A DNA stretch of 64,000 nt from NCBI RefSeq assembly GCF_050320075.1, contig NZ_CP190022.1. One strand, given 5' to 3'. The position numbers and the translations under genes are program-made. A model generated the notes under the pieces. That model saw only the letters and a program-made list of their open reading frames with translations. It searched no databases and was not told the DNA's origin. Source of the DNA: Escherichia coli (GTDB lineage Bacteria; Pseudomonadota; Gammaproteobacteria; Enterobacterales; Enterobacteriaceae). Position 1 is the first letter of the stretch, and the number at the start of each line of letters is the position of its first letter. Below, piece after piece: positions 3,533 to 63,846 of this stretch.

Positions 3533-3631
3533 TTTTTTTTGATTGTGGGTGTCGTGCTGTTTTCTCTGTTTTCACCTGTGCGGGAGTGGTGTGCCAGTGA
3601 CCACCACATGCCATTGTTGTGCCGTCGTTTT

Positions 3632-3990
3632 TCTTCAGTCGCGCCGGATGCGGCGCTCCCTGCACACCTGACGGTGTGTAAGGCCACTGCGCCTGATGGC
3701 GCAGCTGTCTCTGCCTGTCTGCCGCCGCACTGCGGCCCGTTTTCCGCAGACGGACTTTCCGGGGGTACATACACGACCACATCCCGTTTCAGTCGTCCAG
3801 GGGAGAGATGTACCAGCCACAAAACTTTTTGCCGCAGGCGTCAAAAACTTTTGCGTCTGCCCCCGGACAACTGCCCCGTGACGTGGTGAGCGTCCCCCGT
3901 CGGAAAGGTCCACTGCGGGGAAATCCCCGAAGACCCGGACGGCAGAAGGAGCTTCGCTCCTCCGGGAAATGACCTGGCTGACCCGGCAGT
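3632..3990. promoter_or_regulatory. Frpo/ssi-like leading-region repeat, copy 2
   Basis: Imperfect direct repeat of 735-1085, ending just before the start at 4011. Confidence 0.5.
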
Positions 3991-4010: not shown

Positions 4011-4862
4011 GTGATGAATCAGACTTTACCCACTGCTGACCTGAATACTGCCGGCACGACAGATGTTATTCCGTCTGTGGCTATCGACCGCATCATCGCG
4101 CAGCGTAACGAAGGTATTGCACTGTTCATGCAGGCGATGGAATGCCTGGCGACAGCGCGCAGGATTCTGCTCGATGCTTCCGGTGACATTTTTCTCTACG
4201 GGTTTGAAGACTGCGTGACTGATTCCGTTCGTCGCATGGATAAACCGGAAGAAGCGAAAAGGAATATCACCCGTCTTGCCGACCGGAAAATCTGGGACCG
4301 CCTGATGACAGATACGGGCATGTACACCTTCATGAGTTCATGCCAGCGTGATGAGTGGAACAGCCAGCTGATGAGCGACACCTGTCCTGAAATCATCCTG
4401 GACAATGTACTGGCAACATTCCGCCATCTGAATGCCAGCAAAATGCAGACATTTGAACAGGGACTGATTGATGTCTACCGGAAATTGTCATGGGATTACA
4501 GAACCAATAATCCCTGCCGTCTGGGCAAGAGAATCATTATTGAAAACCTGCTGTACCGCTGGAGTAACGGGCGTGTGACGCTGGACTGCAGCGGGCGGGA
4601 GGCACTGGATGACCTGGTACGTCCGTTTTATCTGCTGGATGGGCGCAACATTCCTGACTTCCGGAGCAGCATCGGGGCGCAGTATGGTGAATTTCTCGGG
4701 AACGGCGACAATGTCGGTAAGCTGTTAGAAGGGGAATATTTTACGGTGCGTGGCTACCAGAAAGGGACCGTACACATTGTCTTTAAGCGTTCTGACCTTG
4801 TTGAAAAACTGAATGATATTATTGCACGGCATTATCCTGGTGCATTGCCGCCACGAGTCTGA
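4011..4862 (+). CDS. Hypothetical leading-region protein, 283 aa (family not recognised with confidence)
   Basis: aggag RBS at 4001-4005, GTG 4011 / ATG 4014; preceded by Frpo-like repeat 2; followed by a hairpin with a T-run at 4875-4903. Confidence 0.55.
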   Translation: MMNQTLPTADLNTAGTTDVIPSVAIDRIIAQRNEGIALFMQAMECLATARRILLDASGDIFLYGFEDCVTDSVRRMDKPEEAKRNITRLADRKIWDRLMTDTGMYTFMSSCQRDEWNSQLMSDTCPEIILDNVLATFRHLNASKMQTFEQGLIDVYRKLSWDYRTNNPCRLGKRIIIENLLYRWSNGRVTLDCSGREALDDLVRPFYLLDGRNIPDFRSSIGAQYGEFLGNGDNVGKLLEGEYFTVRGYQKGTVHIVFKRSDLVEKLNDIIARHYPGALPPRV

Positions 4863-19144: not shown

Positions 19145-19795
19145 TTAAAATACTTCTGCAACAGGAACACCGGCAACTTTTTCCCACTCTTTAACCCGAT
19201 ACCGAATCATCTGCGGGAAACGTTCCTTGTACTCATATCCACGTGCAGCCATGGTGTGCATGGTGTTGGCCAGCGTCCTTGATGAGATGCCGGAGATTTC
19301 CAGTGGGATCATCGGCAGACTCACATATGTAGTGTGGATTTCCAGCTTGCCGTCTTCAGCAACCGTGCGGGTAAAGTTGTGAATATCCAGACCAATCACA
19401 TCCATCACATTGTTTGGGTAAATGCGCACATACAGCATGGTGCCGTTTTTAATGTCGATCCCGAAATAACAACTCTTCGAGAATGACAGTTGCTCGTAAT
19501 CGCTGGTCGGCGCAAAGAGACAGCTTTCTTTTATCTGCTTAACAACCTGCTGGATTTTCTTTTTCTTCGCTCTGGTTCTCAGATATAGCCAGAGTGGGGG
19601 AATAAAAAGAAGAAAATAACATCCATATGCCAGAATAAAAAGGCTTGTTGAATTCGTTAGTTTATCATCTAATAAATATGATGTATAAGCTGTTGCGTAT
19701 AAAGCTAAGCACGGAATGCCTAATAAAAAATAAGCGTTGCGGGCCAAGTGGTAATATGCCCACCAGGAAGGATATCTGCTTTTTGTTTTGTTCAT
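19145..19795 (-). CDS. excA: ExcA entry-exclusion inner membrane protein
   Basis: 216 aa with TM helices, immediately downstream of traY as in R64. Confidence 0.6.
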   Translation of the reverse strand: MNKTKSRYPSWWAYYHLARNAYFLLGIPCLALYATAYTSYLLDDKLTNSTSLFILAYGCYFLLFIPPLWLYLRTRAKKKKIQQVVKQIKESCLFAPTSDYEQLSFSKSCYFGIDIKNGTMLYVRIYPNNVMDVIGLDIHNFTRTVAEDGKLEIHTTYVSLPMIPLEISGISSRTLANTMHTMAARGYEYKERFPQMIRYRVKEWEKVAGVPVAEVF

Positions 19796-59377: not shown

Positions 59378-60448
59378 TTATTCCTGCGGACGGTCTGTCA
59401 CCCGCAGCAGACATTGTGCTGTACTGGTCCGGGCATACAGCGGTTTTTCTGCCGGGGTGTAGAGTGCGAAGAGCTGCTCCAGCGCCTGGCGGAAACTGCC
59501 GGTGAAAACCAGAGGAGCATCGATGCTGTAGTTGACAGGTGTTTCCCAGCGCAGTGTCCATGTGCCGTGCGGGCATTTTTCGGATGATGTCCAGCGGGCC
59601 AGTCCGTCTTTCAGGGTGGTCCCCTTTTCCATTTTCCATTGCCGTGGCGGTATGACCTTCTGCGGTGGTGGCACTACCGGTTTCGTGGCCACCGGGGCTG
59701 GCGTGGTTGTTCTGCTCTCTGGTGTTCCGGATGCCCCGGTGGTGGTCTGAGCCCGGGATACGCTGACGGCAGGTGTCACTGGTGTCGGGCCTGCCGGCGT
59801 TGCGGTGCTGCCCCTGAACGGATTACGCGGTGTATCAGCAGCTTTCTGTGAACCCTGCGGTGCCGTGACGTCGACCGGCGGTGTTGCAGAGGTCGTGACA
59901 GTCAGTATTTTCCTGTTCCAGTCCATATGTCCGTAAAGCTGCTGGCCGGCCAGCAGCGCATTCAGTGCCCGGTGCCACTGGTCATTAACGGACCAGGAAG
60001 GGAGGCGTTTGTTCAGTGCCGGTGTGGCGGCATTCTGCTGGCGGAACTGCCAGCCGGTTGGCAGCAGCTGGCGTATCCAGTCACTGACGGTGCGCTGACG
60101 TGCTTCACGTAAATAAACGACGGATGAGGGACCGGGCTTACCGGTCATAACCAGTGCAGACAGCGGTGTGGCCTGAAGAAGCGGGCGGGGAGGCAGTGCG
60201 GTACTCTGGCTGCTGACAGTGGTTGAGGGTGTCGCCGTTGTTGTCGGACGGGGCGGTGTCACAGGGCGGGTCACCGGTGGCGGAAGCAGACGTTTTTGCG
60301 TATGGGTGATAATGGCAGCACTTTCGCGAATTTGTCCGTCGACGAACACCAGAGCCGGAGGCGTGGTGTCAGGAACAGGCGTGGCATTAAATGCCGTACA
60401 GCCGCTGAGTAATGACGGCAGAAGGAGTGTCAGTGATTTCTTTTGCAT
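59378..60448 (-). CDS. pilL: PilL lipoprotein
   Basis: 356 aa; lipobox LLSGC; Pro/Thr-rich linkers. Confidence 0.6.
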   Translation of the reverse strand: MQKKSLTLLLPSLLSGCTAFNATPVPDTTPPALVFVDGQIRESAAIITHTQKRLLPPPVTRPVTPPRPTTTATPSTTVSSQSTALPPRPLLQATPLSALVMTGKPGPSSVVYLREARQRTVSDWIRQLLPTGWQFRQQNAATPALNKRLPSWSVNDQWHRALNALLAGQQLYGHMDWNRKILTVTTSATPPVDVTAPQGSQKAADTPRNPFRGSTATPAGPTPVTPAVSVSRAQTTTGASGTPESRTTTPAPVATKPVVPPPQKVIPPRQWKMEKGTTLKDGLARWTSSEKCPHGTWTLRWETPVNYSIDAPLVFTGSFRQALEQLFALYTPAEKPLYARTSTAQCLLRVTDRPQE

Positions 60449-60510
60449 AGAATATAATCCGGTATATTACGGGTTACGGTATAAGACAGGTGGCGGGTAA
60501 CTGGCCTTAA

Positions 60511-60828
60511 GTGGAACTGCTCAGGAAAATGATGACAGATTCATTATTAGGGTGCTCAGTAGGATATGTGTTTTCGAAAATACTGAAGATATCCTTTCTG
60601 CGTTTTATTCAGTCTGAGGGGGGATGGGATATTATTACTTACTTTTTGTGGATGCTGGGAATGCTTATTGTCATGGCCGTGCTGTTTATCTGGATGTGCG
60701 CCGCTGTATGCTATGAGCTTCGGATGTATAAAATAAAAACAGGAAGGGAGAACGATATATTATTCTGGGTGTGGATTCTTCTTTTTGATGTCGCGGTTGT
60801 ATTTTCGCTGGGTAATGTTATCTGGTGA
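60511..60828 (+). CDS. Hypothetical small membrane protein (105 aa), low GC
   Basis: Two hydrophobic helices; stop codon directly abuts the stop of the convergent minus-strand ORF. Confidence 0.35.
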   Translation: MELLRKMMTDSLLGCSVGYVFSKILKISFLRFIQSEGGWDIITYFLWMLGMLIVMAVLFIWMCAAVCYELRMYKIKTGRENDILFWVWILLFDVAVVFSLGNVIW

Positions 60829-61260
60829 TTATGGGTTCAGTGACATATGGAAAAAGATAAGTGCGAACATTGATACTGAAGAATAATATATCCACGAATA
60901 GAAAAACATGAATTTCGGAGATGGTTTCTTCTGTCTCCTGTTTTTCAGGGGAGTCTGTGGGTCAAATGTTATCAGCGTCATTAAAGGATACCCTTTCATA
61001 AGAATAAAAATATAGACGCATAAATGAACGTAAAGAGGTAACCTGTCCTGCCAGAACAGAATCATCATGATGACGGCAAGATGAAATGTCGTTACATTGA
61101 TATAATAAAACCAGCTGTATTTACGCAGATACTGTTGGATATTCACGCTGTCAGCATGCGGTTCTGGTGAACAATTTATGCAAAAACAGAAGAAAGAAAT
61201 GATGATGAACACGGTCAGAGTGACCGGTAATACAGTCACAAGCAGAAAGAGTATGGACAT
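60829..61260 (-). CDS. Hypothetical polytopic membrane protein (143 aa), low GC
   Basis: Four hydrophobic segments; occupies the position upstream of pilL. Confidence 0.4.
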   Translation of the reverse strand: MSILFLLVTVLPVTLTVFIIISFFCFCINCSPEPHADSVNIQQYLRKYSWFYYINVTTFHLAVIMMILFWQDRLPLYVHLCVYIFILMKGYPLMTLITFDPQTPLKNRRQKKPSPKFMFFYSWIYYSSVSMFALIFFHMSLNP

Positions 61261-61332
61261 AAAAATATCTCCGTCAGGATAGTGTGATTATTCCTTTATG
61301 GTTCCATAACCCGGCGTAGCTCCGTCGACTGG

Positions 61333-61713
61333 TTATAATTTTATCCGGGACCTGGCTTTAAGGGGTAATGCCACCTCTTTCCATTCACTACAGCTTCCGG
61401 GAATACGTTCTGTGCGTCGTATTATTCGTGTGTTCTGGCATACAATAATCAGGGCATTGTCTGCCGTCTGAAAAGGCATAATCGCAATGTTAATATCTTC
61501 TGTTGCCGGGATACAGATGACTTTCTTTTCACATGTATTGGTGTATATGACAACTCTGAATTTTTCTGCGGACATTTTCAATCCTCTTTTAAACCAGAAT
61601 ATCCCGTGAGGGCATTCTTTGTGAAAAAGTTCTGTGGACTTCTCTATGACGGCAGGTAATGCATCCAGCAGGGCAAGACGGAAGCGGAGGCTGGTCTGCT
61701 CATCCGAAAGCAC
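61333..61713 (-). CDS. Hypothetical protein (126 aa)
   Basis: ORF between the regulator genes and the pil operon. Confidence 0.35.
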   Translation of the reverse strand: MLSDEQTSLRFRLALLDALPAVIEKSTELFHKECPHGIFWFKRGLKMSAEKFRVVIYTNTCEKKVICIPATEDINIAIMPFQTADNALIIVCQNTRIIRRTERIPGSCSEWKEVALPLKARSRIKL

Positions 61714-61851
61714 GTTAATGGCATCGTTCAGTGCGCGCTGTGCTTCTGCTTCTGCCAGACCTTTCTGACGGGTGGCCTCCGCCAGTTCAATAATTGCTGC
61801 TGCCTGGAGAAGTCAGCGGAGAGTGGCTGCTGTTGTGGCTGTCCCGGTATT

Positions 61852-62517
61852 TCAGTGTAACAGGTGATTGCTGTGATCTATGCCCCATTCGGCTTTCGGT
61901 AAACCTGAATGCCCCACATGAAGAATGCGTGACAGCATGTTTCTGCCGCTGCCGTTCAGGCTGCATTCGCGTCCGTGCGCGAGTATAAAACCTTCATCCC
62001 GGAATATCTCTTCCACTTCTGAAGATTCGAGGGATGCCGGATGAATTAATGAAAATGCCACCGGTCTGAGCATTCTGCCCGTGGTGGAAAAGGTGTCTCT
62101 GGTACTGTTCAGCTGCAGGATATGACGTTTACCTGTTTGCGCACGGGAAAGTGTCTCACTCAGCAGCTGGTCGTTCCATGCGCACGTGCCAATCTGCCAT
62201 CCCAGACTTCGGCACGCGGAAAGAGCCGAGCGGAAGCGGTACAGGTCGTATAATGCTGCGTTATTGCCACTTTCCAGCAGTGATTTCAGCGTATTTGCTA
62301 CCGGTATGTCCGTATTAGTGGCCAGCAGTTTTCGCAGAGTCGTAAACTCTTCTGCCATTCCTCTGAACTCGCGCATCTGACGGGCAGTGTCAAGCCAGTT
62401 CAGCAGGTAACGCCGGCGACGCCGTTCGTTGTTTATGTTGTCCGGGGCGGTGGAGAGTGCTTCGAGCATATTCTCCAGTAACAGAATGACAGGGTTTTCC
62501 TGGGATAGAATGGTCAT
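61852..62517 (-). CDS. Hypothetical protein (221 aa), possible transfer regulator (TraC position)
   Basis: ORF downstream of the NusG-like gene; named by position only. Confidence 0.45.
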   Translation of the reverse strand: MTILSQENPVILLLENMLEALSTAPDNINNERRRRRYLLNWLDTARQMREFRGMAEEFTTLRKLLATNTDIPVANTLKSLLESGNNAALYDLYRFRSALSACRSLGWQIGTCAWNDQLLSETLSRAQTGKRHILQLNSTRDTFSTTGRMLRPVAFSLIHPASLESSEVEEIFRDEGFILAHGRECSLNGSGRNMLSRILHVGHSGLPKAEWGIDHSNHLLH

Positions 62518-62657: not shown

Positions 62658-63299
62658 TCATGTCAACGCTCCGTCATCAGATACCAGGTGCAGGAGCAGG
62701 GCGATCCTCGACTCCGGCAGAGGCTGTGCATCAAGCCGGAGGAGGTACTGGTAACGCGCTTTTGTCAGCCAGAGGGTGGAGGCAGCATCCAGCTCCTCCC
62801 TGGCTGCCGGATTGAGCGCAGGATCCGGGTACACTTTCATTAAAGACTGAACGATATCCTCCCTGACGGTTTTGATTTCACCGGCCATTTTCACGAAGCC
62901 CAGAAAGGCACTGTGACGGCGCAGGTGAGTGAAAGCGTGGCGTTCGGGGTCTGCTTTCAGGAAGAAGTAACCGGGAAACACGGCGTGTATATGTCGACGG
63001 TAACCACAGACTTTATCCGTGCGGCGGACTTTTTTCAGTATCAGGGGTGTCCAGGGAAGGACGTGTTGTTCGGAAAGCCAGGAAAAGAGATGTTCGCGGT
63101 TTTTGCCGGCAGGGATGTACTGAGCCAGATACCAGTTGCGTTGATGTAATTCACTGATATTCAAAATCCGGAACGCTCCGCGAAAATCGATCCCCGCAGG
63201 GGGGCTTCGATGTTGTTGTGAACGGCGAATACATAAAGCATGTGTCGGAAACAGCGGCTGACCCACGTTCAGCCCGGCCTGCAGTTCTGACAGGCACAT
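62658..63299 (-). CDS. traB: NusG/RfaH-like transcription antiterminator (TraB-like)
   Basis: NWYLAQYIPAGKNREHLFSWL...HAVFPGYFFLKAD resembles the NusG N-terminal domain; true start probably internal. Confidence 0.55.
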   Translation of the reverse strand: MCLSELQAGLNVGQPLFPTHALCIRRSQQHRSPPAGIDFRGAFRILNISELHQRNWYLAQYIPAGKNREHLFSWLSEQHVLPWTPLILKKVRRTDKVCGYRRHIHAVFPGYFFLKADPERHAFTHLRRHSAFLGFVKMAGEIKTVREDIVQSLMKVYPDPALNPAAREELDAASTLWLTKARYQYLLRLDAQPLPESRIALLLHLVSDDGALT

Positions 63300-63846
63300 G
63301 ATTTACGCACTCTTGTAAGCCTTGTGGACGGTTTCGAGGCGGGCGAAAACCGACAACTCCTGCAAACAGGATTAATGGCTGGAAAATATATTACATAAGG
63401 ATGTATCTGTGGCAAGAGTTAATATAAGTAGTTGAATAGATCGTTATATTTGATAAATCAGCATATCATGCTGATTTGTGTGCAGTGTCTGGAGGATTAG
63501 ATCGTTTAAAAATTTTAGGCGATCTCTTCTACTAAAAATGATGAAAAATACAGCATAAAAGATCGTTTGTGAAATTGTTCATTTTTTGACACAGTTCAAA
63601 AAAACGACGCTTTTTCGGGGAGTTAAAGAGGGCCACTGTAACCCTGAGAAATCATGTCGGCTTTTCAAAGCGGTGGAAAAGGGGTATATTGCGGATCGTT
63701 ATGCAGTGGCTTTTGGGATCGTCAGGATCCGGGAAGTCAGAAAACGGCAGGATGCGCCATAAGGCATTCAGGACGTATGGCAGAAACGACGGCAGTTTGC
63801 CGGTGCCGGAAGGCTGAAAAAAGTTTCAGAAGGCCATAAAGGAAAA

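Follow-up and report, generated by a model that had tools for sequence, protein, structure and literature searches.

A convergent pair of small membrane-protein genes, apparently confined to I-complex plasmids, between pilI and pilL of an IncK2/Z plasmid of Escherichia coli

Plasmids of the I-complex (IncI1, K, B/O and Z) are major carriers of extended-spectrum β-lactamases (ESBL) and AmpC in poultry and humans, and they owe their transfer in liquid and in the gut to a thin pilus. In R64 the interval between pilI and pilL is occupied by two genes, pilJ (150 amino acids, aa) and pilK (196 aa). What, then, can take their place in related plasmids, and what might the occupants do? The question is raised by a 64,000-nucleotide stretch of E. 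coli DNA (contig NZ_CP190022.1, assembly GCF_050320075.1; hereafter the window), in which a sequence-only reading had placed, at the site of R64 pilI-pilJ-pilK, a convergent pair of AT-rich membrane-protein genes that might constitute an acquired module. Sequence comparisons indicate that the two genes form a cassette, seen only in plasmids of the I-complex, which lies in the pilI-pilL interval at the position of R64 pilJ and pilK. The best overall explanation, towards which we lean somewhat beyond an even balance, is that it specifies a dispensable accessory pair of inner-membrane proteins, one of them co-transcribed with the pil genes.

The interval is bordered upstream by pilI (61333-61575, minus strand; RefSeq annotation, Pfam PF10623 PilI, E = 6.2e-32) and downstream by pilL, which encodes a TcpQ-family lipoprotein (59378-60448, minus strand; RefSeq annotation, with the Pfam TcpQ match on homologues). 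We refer to the family of the plus-strand gene as A and to that of the minus-strand gene as B, with the versions in the window being A1 and B1. B1 (60829-61260, minus strand, 143 aa, ATG start, about four transmembrane helices) appears in the list of open reading frames (ORFs) in pil-operon orientation, with its start 72 nt downstream of pilI and a GGAG sequence 8 nt ahead of the ATG. A1, on the opposite strand, is represented by an ORF of 105 aa with a GTG start (60511-60828, plus strand; also from the ORF list), and the two stop codons abut, with tga at 60826-60828 followed by tta at 60829-60831. Thus, the gene that lies between pilI and pilL and is co-directional with them is B1 (61260 to 60829). 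The basic geometry of the sequence-only reading was borne out: a polytopic minus-strand ORF of 143 aa with four long predicted helices, a plus-strand membrane ORF of 105 aa with a long N-terminal and two further hydrophobic helices, and stop codons that touch. Its statement that the pair stands where R64 has pilI-pilJ-pilK needs amendment, as the window does differ from R64 at the pilJ-pilK position, but retains pilI (Pfam E = 6e-32).

Several lines of evidence suggest that both ORFs are genes. When the full-length interval was subjected to 2000 dinucleotide shuffles, an ORF of at least 143 aa arose in 14 of them, and ORFs of at least 143 and at least 131 aa, the latter being the full length of A1 in sister plasmids, never arose together. 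Good Shine-Dalgarno sequences precede both genes, that of full-length A1 being GAGG. B1 is 143 aa long in all seven sequenced variants, which share 89-99% amino acid identity, and open frames were likewise kept in all sampled copies (7/7 each) of B1 and of the B2 and A2 genes described below. The ratio of nonsynonymous to synonymous substitution rates (dN/dS) was below 1 in all pairs compared, amounting to 0.39-0.63 for B1, 0.15-0.9 for B2 and 0.16-0.66 for A2, as against 0.06-0.48 for pilI and 0.11-0.59 for pilL in the flanks; a binomial test of the synonymous excess in B1 gave p = 0.04 and 0.21 for two pairs. The deep conservation of B1 at the protein level offers a stronger argument for it than does dN/dS. 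In the databases, A1 is already present in RefSeq as the hypothetical proteins WP_172693624 and WP_029391920, A2 and B2 are deposited there, likewise as hypothetical proteins, under WP_016237239 and WP_032181980, respectively, and B1 lacks annotation in the RefSeq records examined, though some GenBank submitters have called it. Taken at the level of sequence, both ORFs are real and more than products of chance.

The protein-level conservation emerged from comparison with a second, highly divergent form of the pair. In a tblastn search of 72,556 plasmids, each family was recovered from 149 conjugative MPF_I plasmids, and the counts per genus were the same for both. The second form comprises A2, which has 141-146 aa and shares 33-37% identity with A1, and B2, a protein of 295 aa, of which residues 1-128 match B1 at 29% identity and residues 153-282 at 26%. 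Since B1 aligns to both halves of B2, the latter can be understood as a tandem head-to-tail fusion of two B1-like units. These relationships were significant in composition-corrected BLASTP comparisons (E = 2e-16 for A1 and A2; E = 1e-13 and 5e-9 for B1 and the halves of B2), and in a six-frame tblastx comparison the strongest cross-type matches fell in the proposed frames, along with one antisense-frame match over the nucleotide-conserved 5' part of A.

The alignments allow each family to be characterized. Family A proteins (131-146 aa) show an N-terminal motif, LLQ..S...V.LLR..MTDSLL.CS.G.VF, an EGG loop and two more hydrophobic helices; the alignment of A1 and A2 contains 36-40 invariant positions, many of them in or beside the N-terminal part that is deleted in the window. 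The unit of family B spans about 145 aa with four hydrophobic helices, marked by an LP in helix 1, a YL..x.WF..N signature before helix 2 and a C-terminal NP, and B1 fits this description; 17-19 columns are invariant across B1 and both halves of B2. Hydropathy and the secondary structure in AlphaFold models place the helices of B1 at approximately residues 3-30, 49-72, 76-97 and 115-141. Judging by the positive-inside rule and the basic loop KNRRQKKPSPK, its four helices are predicted to adopt an N-out/C-out topology, which would make a direct head-to-tail fusion such as that in B2 feasible. Full-length A1 has an N-terminal helix that is basic and some 36 residues long, followed by three hydrophobic helices, which suggests an N-in/C-out topology with the N-terminal helix in the cytoplasm.

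Neither family appears to extend beyond this group of plasmids. A HMMER profile of family B retrieved six entries from 1.84 billion representative proteins, all of them B1, B2 or fragments thereof, and searches with the A profile, together with word-index searches using B1 and A1, found only E. coli plasmid relatives. Searches of A1, B1, A2 and B2, and of other ORFs in and near the slot, against Pfam, NCBIfam, PADLOC and PHROGs gave no hits or noise only, the A and B profiles had no match among PDB sequences, and our literature search found no paper on the pair. Families A and B are, as far as these sequence searches indicate, small inner-membrane protein families found only in I-complex plasmids. 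The window itself is assigned to an IncK2/Z I-complex plasmid: a 3.3-kb piece spanning the locus is 100% identical to the E. coli plasmid p1106 (NZ_MG825371), whose record is typed IncK2/Z, MOBP and MPF_I, poultry-associated IncK2 plasmids match the same piece at 99%, and all matches are plasmid-borne, with none in the chromosomes of 5426 complete E. coli genomes.

The organization of the interval varies considerably between plasmids. Reading in the direction of the operon, IncK2, including the window, has pilI, B1, reversed A1 and pilL; three other loci (L010, L013 and L014) have pilI, B1, B2, reversed A2 and pilL; and L007 has pilI, B2, reversed A2 and pilL. Further genes are interposed in L006 (pilI, ORF111, a 94-aa membrane ORF, B2, reversed A2, pilL), L008 (pilI, B1, a 133-aa membrane ORF, B2, reversed A2, pilL) and L003 (pilI, ORF122, a remnant of B1, B2, reversed A2, pilL). 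In every locus examined A and B lie tail-to-tail, with stop codons that abut or overlap by 8-11 nt. BLASTN breakpoints delimit the DNA peculiar to IncK2 to the A1 gene with 21 nt upstream (417 nt, positions 4250-4666 of the IncK2 locus L002), pilI and B1 being common to IncK2 and the non-IncK2 locus L010 at 88% nucleotide identity, and the roughly 100 nt upstream of pilL belonging to the common backbone. Variation at this site has been recognized before: IncI1 plasmids are not uniform in their pilI/pilJ/pilK alleles, and small genes are gained and lost in the interval (PMC8004404). Hence, the A/B pair is a non-homologous variant of a known variable slot, its unusual traits being a gene on the opposite strand and an internally duplicated partner.

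Two other protein types share the slot. ORF111/ORF122, an occupant in many plasmids (minus strand of L004 3657-3992, L003 3330-3698 and L006 5422-5778), is a cysteine-rich soluble protein with a CPVCF...H..H motif, whose sole matches, both weak, are to the candidate defence gene PDC-M07B of PADLOC (E = 0.009) and to a GAGA zinc-finger. The 94-aa and 133-aa membrane ORFs (L006 4870-5154, minus; L008 3904-4305, plus) are 68% identical to each other and represent a third membrane family, without a family match, that lies just upstream of B2 in some plasmids.

The history of the cassette is recorded in plasmids that no longer have it. Those with ORF111 only (pilI-ORF111-pilL; IncI-gamma/K1 and B/O/Z) carry deletion scars: in L005 (about 3600-3710) the ribosome-binding site (RBS), ATG and first 29 codons of A2 are joined to the ORF111 flank, and in L004 (about 3600-3640) an RBS with a mutated start survives, and the endpoint differs. 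The junctions recur in PLSDB in about 245 records of the L005 type and about 69 of the L004 type, together about 314, as against approximately 149 records with A and B. The stubs of gene A in these scars argue for a long residence of the cassette in the B/O/K/Z/I-gamma backbone and for its repeated loss, and the common "empty" state of the slot is, as the junctions show, a deletion derivative. Three independent kinds of damage to A1 are found within IncK2, namely a 137-bp deletion, the loss of about 298 bp from inside the gene in pMbl488, which leaves a mini-ORF of 29 codons, and frameshifts in a run of six G residues. Such repeated loss and damage indicates that the pair is dispensable.

This history bears on the proposal that the pair is an AT-rich, perhaps acquired, module. 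The locus is AT-rich: GC is 0.36-0.42 over 60400-61300 versus 0.51-0.62 across the pil genes on its left, and amounts to 40.6% in the A1 ORF and 37.7% in B1, compared with 59.9% in pilL and 52.4% in the whole window. However, R64 pilJ (35.5%) and pilK (36.9%) are also of low GC, B1 and pilI are shared with non-IncK2 plasmids, and scars of the cassette are widespread; therefore the cassette was not recently acquired, and only the A1 allele is specific to IncK2. The notion of an acquired module is thus largely replaced by that of an ancestral, decaying accessory cassette.

The window itself provides an instance of this decay, in that the 105-aa ORF corresponds to the 3' four-fifths of a gene of 131 aa. 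Most sister IncK2 plasmids have, in the equivalent place, an intact ATG-start gene of 131 aa in RefSeq (L002 4271-4666). Alignment with pGF60-A shows that the window lacks 137 bp of the full-length arrangement at a junction between 60508 and 60509, comprising the 59 nt ahead of the ATG, the GAGG RBS and codons 1-26, and the GTG at 60511 is codon 27. The missing residues 1-26 include the invariant L17, L18, Q19 and S23, all part of a family definition that the full-length A1 of sister plasmids fits. MW800640 is the sole other record that matches as one ungapped piece and thus has the same deletion. The remaining spacer upstream of pilL (60449-60510, no strand; delimited by the same alignment) is backbone that survived the deletion, and is 87-97% conserved in I-complex plasmids, whether or not these carry the cassette. 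We conclude that, in this copy, A1 has most likely been reduced to a pseudogene or to a crippled variant, next to an intact B1. Should the region be transcribed, a product of 98 aa could still arise from an AGGA-ATG inside the gene, at codons 33/34. The claim that the plus-strand gene would be transcribed against the pil operon accordingly holds for its orientation, but with the native start, the RBS and 59 upstream bases gone, such transcription is doubtful in this plasmid.

Two sequence features of the A1-B1 region deserve mention in their own right. The run of six G residues (60618-60623, plus strand) encodes part of the E-G-G codons, and database variants of A1 shift frame here (P0016, P0020, P0022, P0023 and P0025), which could reflect real slippage or sequencing error. 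The run was considered as a conserved phase-variation site and rejected, as A2 genes lack it and read GAGGGTGGT instead. Further, a perfect 13-nt inverted repeat (60754-60766 and 60880-60892, no strand; arms at 4592-4604 and 4718-4730 in L002) brackets the stop-stop junction, its arm GATATATTATTCT occurring in the sense strand of each gene some 50-75 nt before that gene's own stop; a rough estimate of the chance expectation for the interval is well below 1.

How the pair might operate can be outlined from its arrangement. B1 would be a positional replacement for pilJ/pilK, and probably belongs to the same transcription unit as the thin-pilus genes, controlled by TraB, which is RfaH/NusG-like, and TraC; a consensus scan predicted no terminator between B1 and pilL. 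The fusion seen in B2 suggests that B1 probably forms a parallel dimer in the inner membrane, and, as A is always accompanied by a B gene and the tail-to-tail arrangement does not change, the two are probably functional partners. Transcription of A and read-through of the operon would oppose each other and, read-through being antisense to A, expression of A would be expected to peak with the pil operon switched off. As to the role, we would guess that the proteins form an accessory complex of the inner membrane, linked to either the conjugative envelope or the thin pilus, and that they are not an essential part of the pilus. With respect to the regulators, TraB (62658-63299, minus strand) was recovered as an RfaH-like NusG paralogue with E = 4e-9, under the curated cut-off, and ops-like sites of the RfaH type (GGCGGTAGnnTG) were neither enriched in the window nor present near pilI, pilL or the locus.

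A number of observations weigh against the picture of an accessory pair of partners that is transcribed with, and against, the pil operon. The selection on B1 appears weak (dN/dS 0.4-0.6), frameshifted variants of it are known (P0008 and P0009), and one locus (L017, a single draft assembly) combines a frameshifted B1 with an intact A1. B1 also occurs without A1, beside B2 and A2, which speaks against a strict A1-B1 partnership, and most of the successful relatives do without A and B. The AlphaFold models are of low confidence (predicted local distance difference test scores of 52.8 and 60.9) and fold searches returned generic helical bundles, so that only the secondary structure was used. The transcription signals for A are also meagre: a sigma-70 consensus scan of the A-pilL spacer found no promoter for A, and a hairpin with a T-run on the plus strand (60917-60948, about 90 nt past the A1 stop, in the codons for loop 3 of B1; L002 4755-4776, offset +56162) is at best a weak candidate for an A1 terminator, as one terminator-like site was found against 1.3 expected from shuffles.

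Among the alternatives, a specificity-type role ranks first, a PilK-like role in the pilus next, and a toxin-antidote function low. The first holds that A and B are an exclusion- or immunity-type pair whose alleles mark self versus non-self in mating, or guard against a membrane-acting factor. It is ranked as the main rival because of the extreme divergence of alleles inside a conserved backbone, with A1 and A2 at 33-37% and B1 and B2 at 26-29% identity next to a pilL with a dN of 0.02-0.06, and the A1 allele has been swapped as a precise block of 417 nt. Comparable properties are known from entry-exclusion proteins, as TraS of F and Eex of SXT/R391 are small hydrophobic inner-membrane proteins encoded in transfer regions, with alleles that are highly divergent between similar plasmids, and TraS/Eex-like proteins resemble A and B in size, polytopic nature and low GC. 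ExcA of IncI plasmids is likewise a small hydrophobic inner-membrane protein of the transfer region with highly divergent alleles. The immunity genes of pore-forming colicins (Ia, Ib, E1 and A), present on I-complex and other plasmids, encode inner-membrane proteins of about 110-180 aa with three or four transmembrane helices and stand on the strand opposite to their neighbour, an orientation similar to the convergence seen here. Yet the plasmid already possesses the canonical IncI exclusion pair ExcA/TraY, with ExcA recognized by NCBIfam (NF033891) at 19145-19795 of the window and no such hit for A or B, and B shows no similarity to ExcA, the B profile aligning to the plasmid's own ExcA with an hhalign probability of 0.1%. 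A and B also differ from entry-exclusion proteins in forming a two-gene convergent arrangement that is lost in most relatives, the cassette being deleted in about two thirds of the related plasmids. In contrast to colicin immunity genes, they have no toxin or colicin gene nearby, their neighbours being pilI and pilL, the partner is another small membrane protein, and there is no Pfam match, immunity families included (none of these at E < 1). On balance we attach only a small likelihood to a specificity role.

A second alternative is that B, with or without A, does the thin-pilus job of PilK, having diverged from it or having been recruited independently. The slot and its flanks are the same as in R64, B1 has the operon position and orientation, low GC and membrane character of pilJ and pilK, which encode small proteins with N-terminal transmembrane helices, B1 is about the size of PilJ, and this plasmid has no other candidate for PilK. 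In R64, pilK was reportedly needed for formation of the thin pilus or for liquid mating (Yoshida et al. 1999). Against a PilK-like role, the similarity does not extend to the sequences: the best BLASTP values of the pair against R64 PilJ and PilK were E = 0.44 and 2.2 (all E > 0.4), and the hhalign probabilities of the A and B profiles did not exceed 5%. The comparison with R64 that the sequence-only reading had called for thus left it standing on this point, as the minus-strand ORF does not align to PilJ or PilK and the plus-strand ORF is conserved as a protein. PilK also has a sizeable non-membrane C-terminal part and B1 is almost entirely membrane-embedded by prediction, and in R64 the two genes are co-directional, without an opposite-strand gene; no A-like convergent gene was found in R64 or pESBL. 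The approximately 314 scarred plasmids retain the other pil genes without any membrane-protein gene in the slot, which speaks indirectly against a need for A and B in thin-pilus formation or liquid mating, and the IncI2 plasmid TP114 builds a working type IV pilus without pilI/J/K (PMC9045228). We therefore regard a PilK-like function as slightly less probable again than a specificity role.

Of much the same slender probability is a more far-reaching version, in which A and B belong to an unrecognised conjugation-linked membrane system. Here, gene A, lying antisense within the thin-pilus operon, and read-through from the operon would repress each other by convergent transcription, so that the locus would switch between "pilus on" and "A on"; A and B would act as an exclusion, immunity or pilus-phage defence pair specific to the plasmid type, and losing the cassette again and again would be the outcome of a balance between protection and efficient transfer.

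The pair could further be conceived as a toxin-antitoxin, addiction or abortive-infection module, the antidote being either the partner protein or antisense RNA from convergent transcription, as befits a tightly linked plasmid-borne pair of small hydrophobic proteins with overlapping 3' ends in which A is never seen without some B gene. We consider this distinctly improbable. Type I toxins are far smaller than 131-295 aa, PADLOC and PHROGs returned no hits and Pfam nothing above noise, and the cassette has been cleanly lost as a whole in hundreds of plasmids. Nor is there an asymmetric dependency, as A1 is destroyed beside an intact B1 and B1 is frameshifted beside an intact A1, the latter in the single draft assembly noted above; that either gene can be damaged next to an intact partner shows no strict mutual need and argues against a toxin and its antidote.

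The reading of the ORFs as accidents of an AT-rich non-coding spacer, in which T-rich codons mimic hydrophobic proteins, could draw on the AT-richness, the absence of B1 from RefSeq annotation and the lack of any family match, but is effectively refuted already by a likeness to relatives of 26-37% identity that is mainly at the protein level and strongest in the proposed frames, with only short and weak nucleotide matches, and by the maintained frames with dN/dS below 1, the shuffle result (0/2000 for both ORFs) and the Shine-Dalgarno sequences described above.

Beyond the slot, the minus strand of the window reads traB, traC, a flotillin remnant, pilI, the two ORFs (with A1 on the opposite strand), pilL, pilM and pilN onward, and an Rfam scan of 59800-62000 found no family. 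The flotillin-gene remnant (61630-61809, minus strand) lies between pilI and traC, where L003, L004, L010 and L017 have an intact flotillin gene (564 aa) together with a gene for an NfeD/YqiJ-like OB-fold protein. An ORF of 126 aa with a GTG start (61333-61713) is an upstream extension of pilI that reaches the edge of this remnant, which suggests that IncK2 has undergone a second deletion beside the slot. In JML285_P3 (L008 1481-2900) the traC-pilI gap holds an ORF for a 196-aa lipoprotein-like product, a traC-like fragment and a 121-aa membrane ORF, without flotillin or NfeD, and this different cargo points to the traC-pilI gap as a second variable spot. A second stretch of low GC (0.36-0.41) lies upstream of traB at 63250-63700, and presumably corresponds to the traA/Hft-type regulatory region described for pESBL (PMC5801416).

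To return to the preferred explanation, a dispensable accessory inner-membrane pair, its consequences lie at several levels. The annotation of IncK2 plasmids gains an unannotated gene, B1, and, for this plasmid, a pseudogene call for A1. If the pair does nothing measurable, what remains is a cleaner annotation of a decaying accessory locus. The arrangement also raises the question of how pilL to pilV are transcribed across an opposing gene, and whether A modulates pilus expression; should A regulate the pilus, or the pair have a role in exclusion or defence, the locus would gain in interest. For the I-complex as a whole, the pilI-pilL slot is occupied by membrane-protein cassettes that are interchangeable and non-homologous, pilJ/pilK in R64 and A/B in the plasmid studied here.

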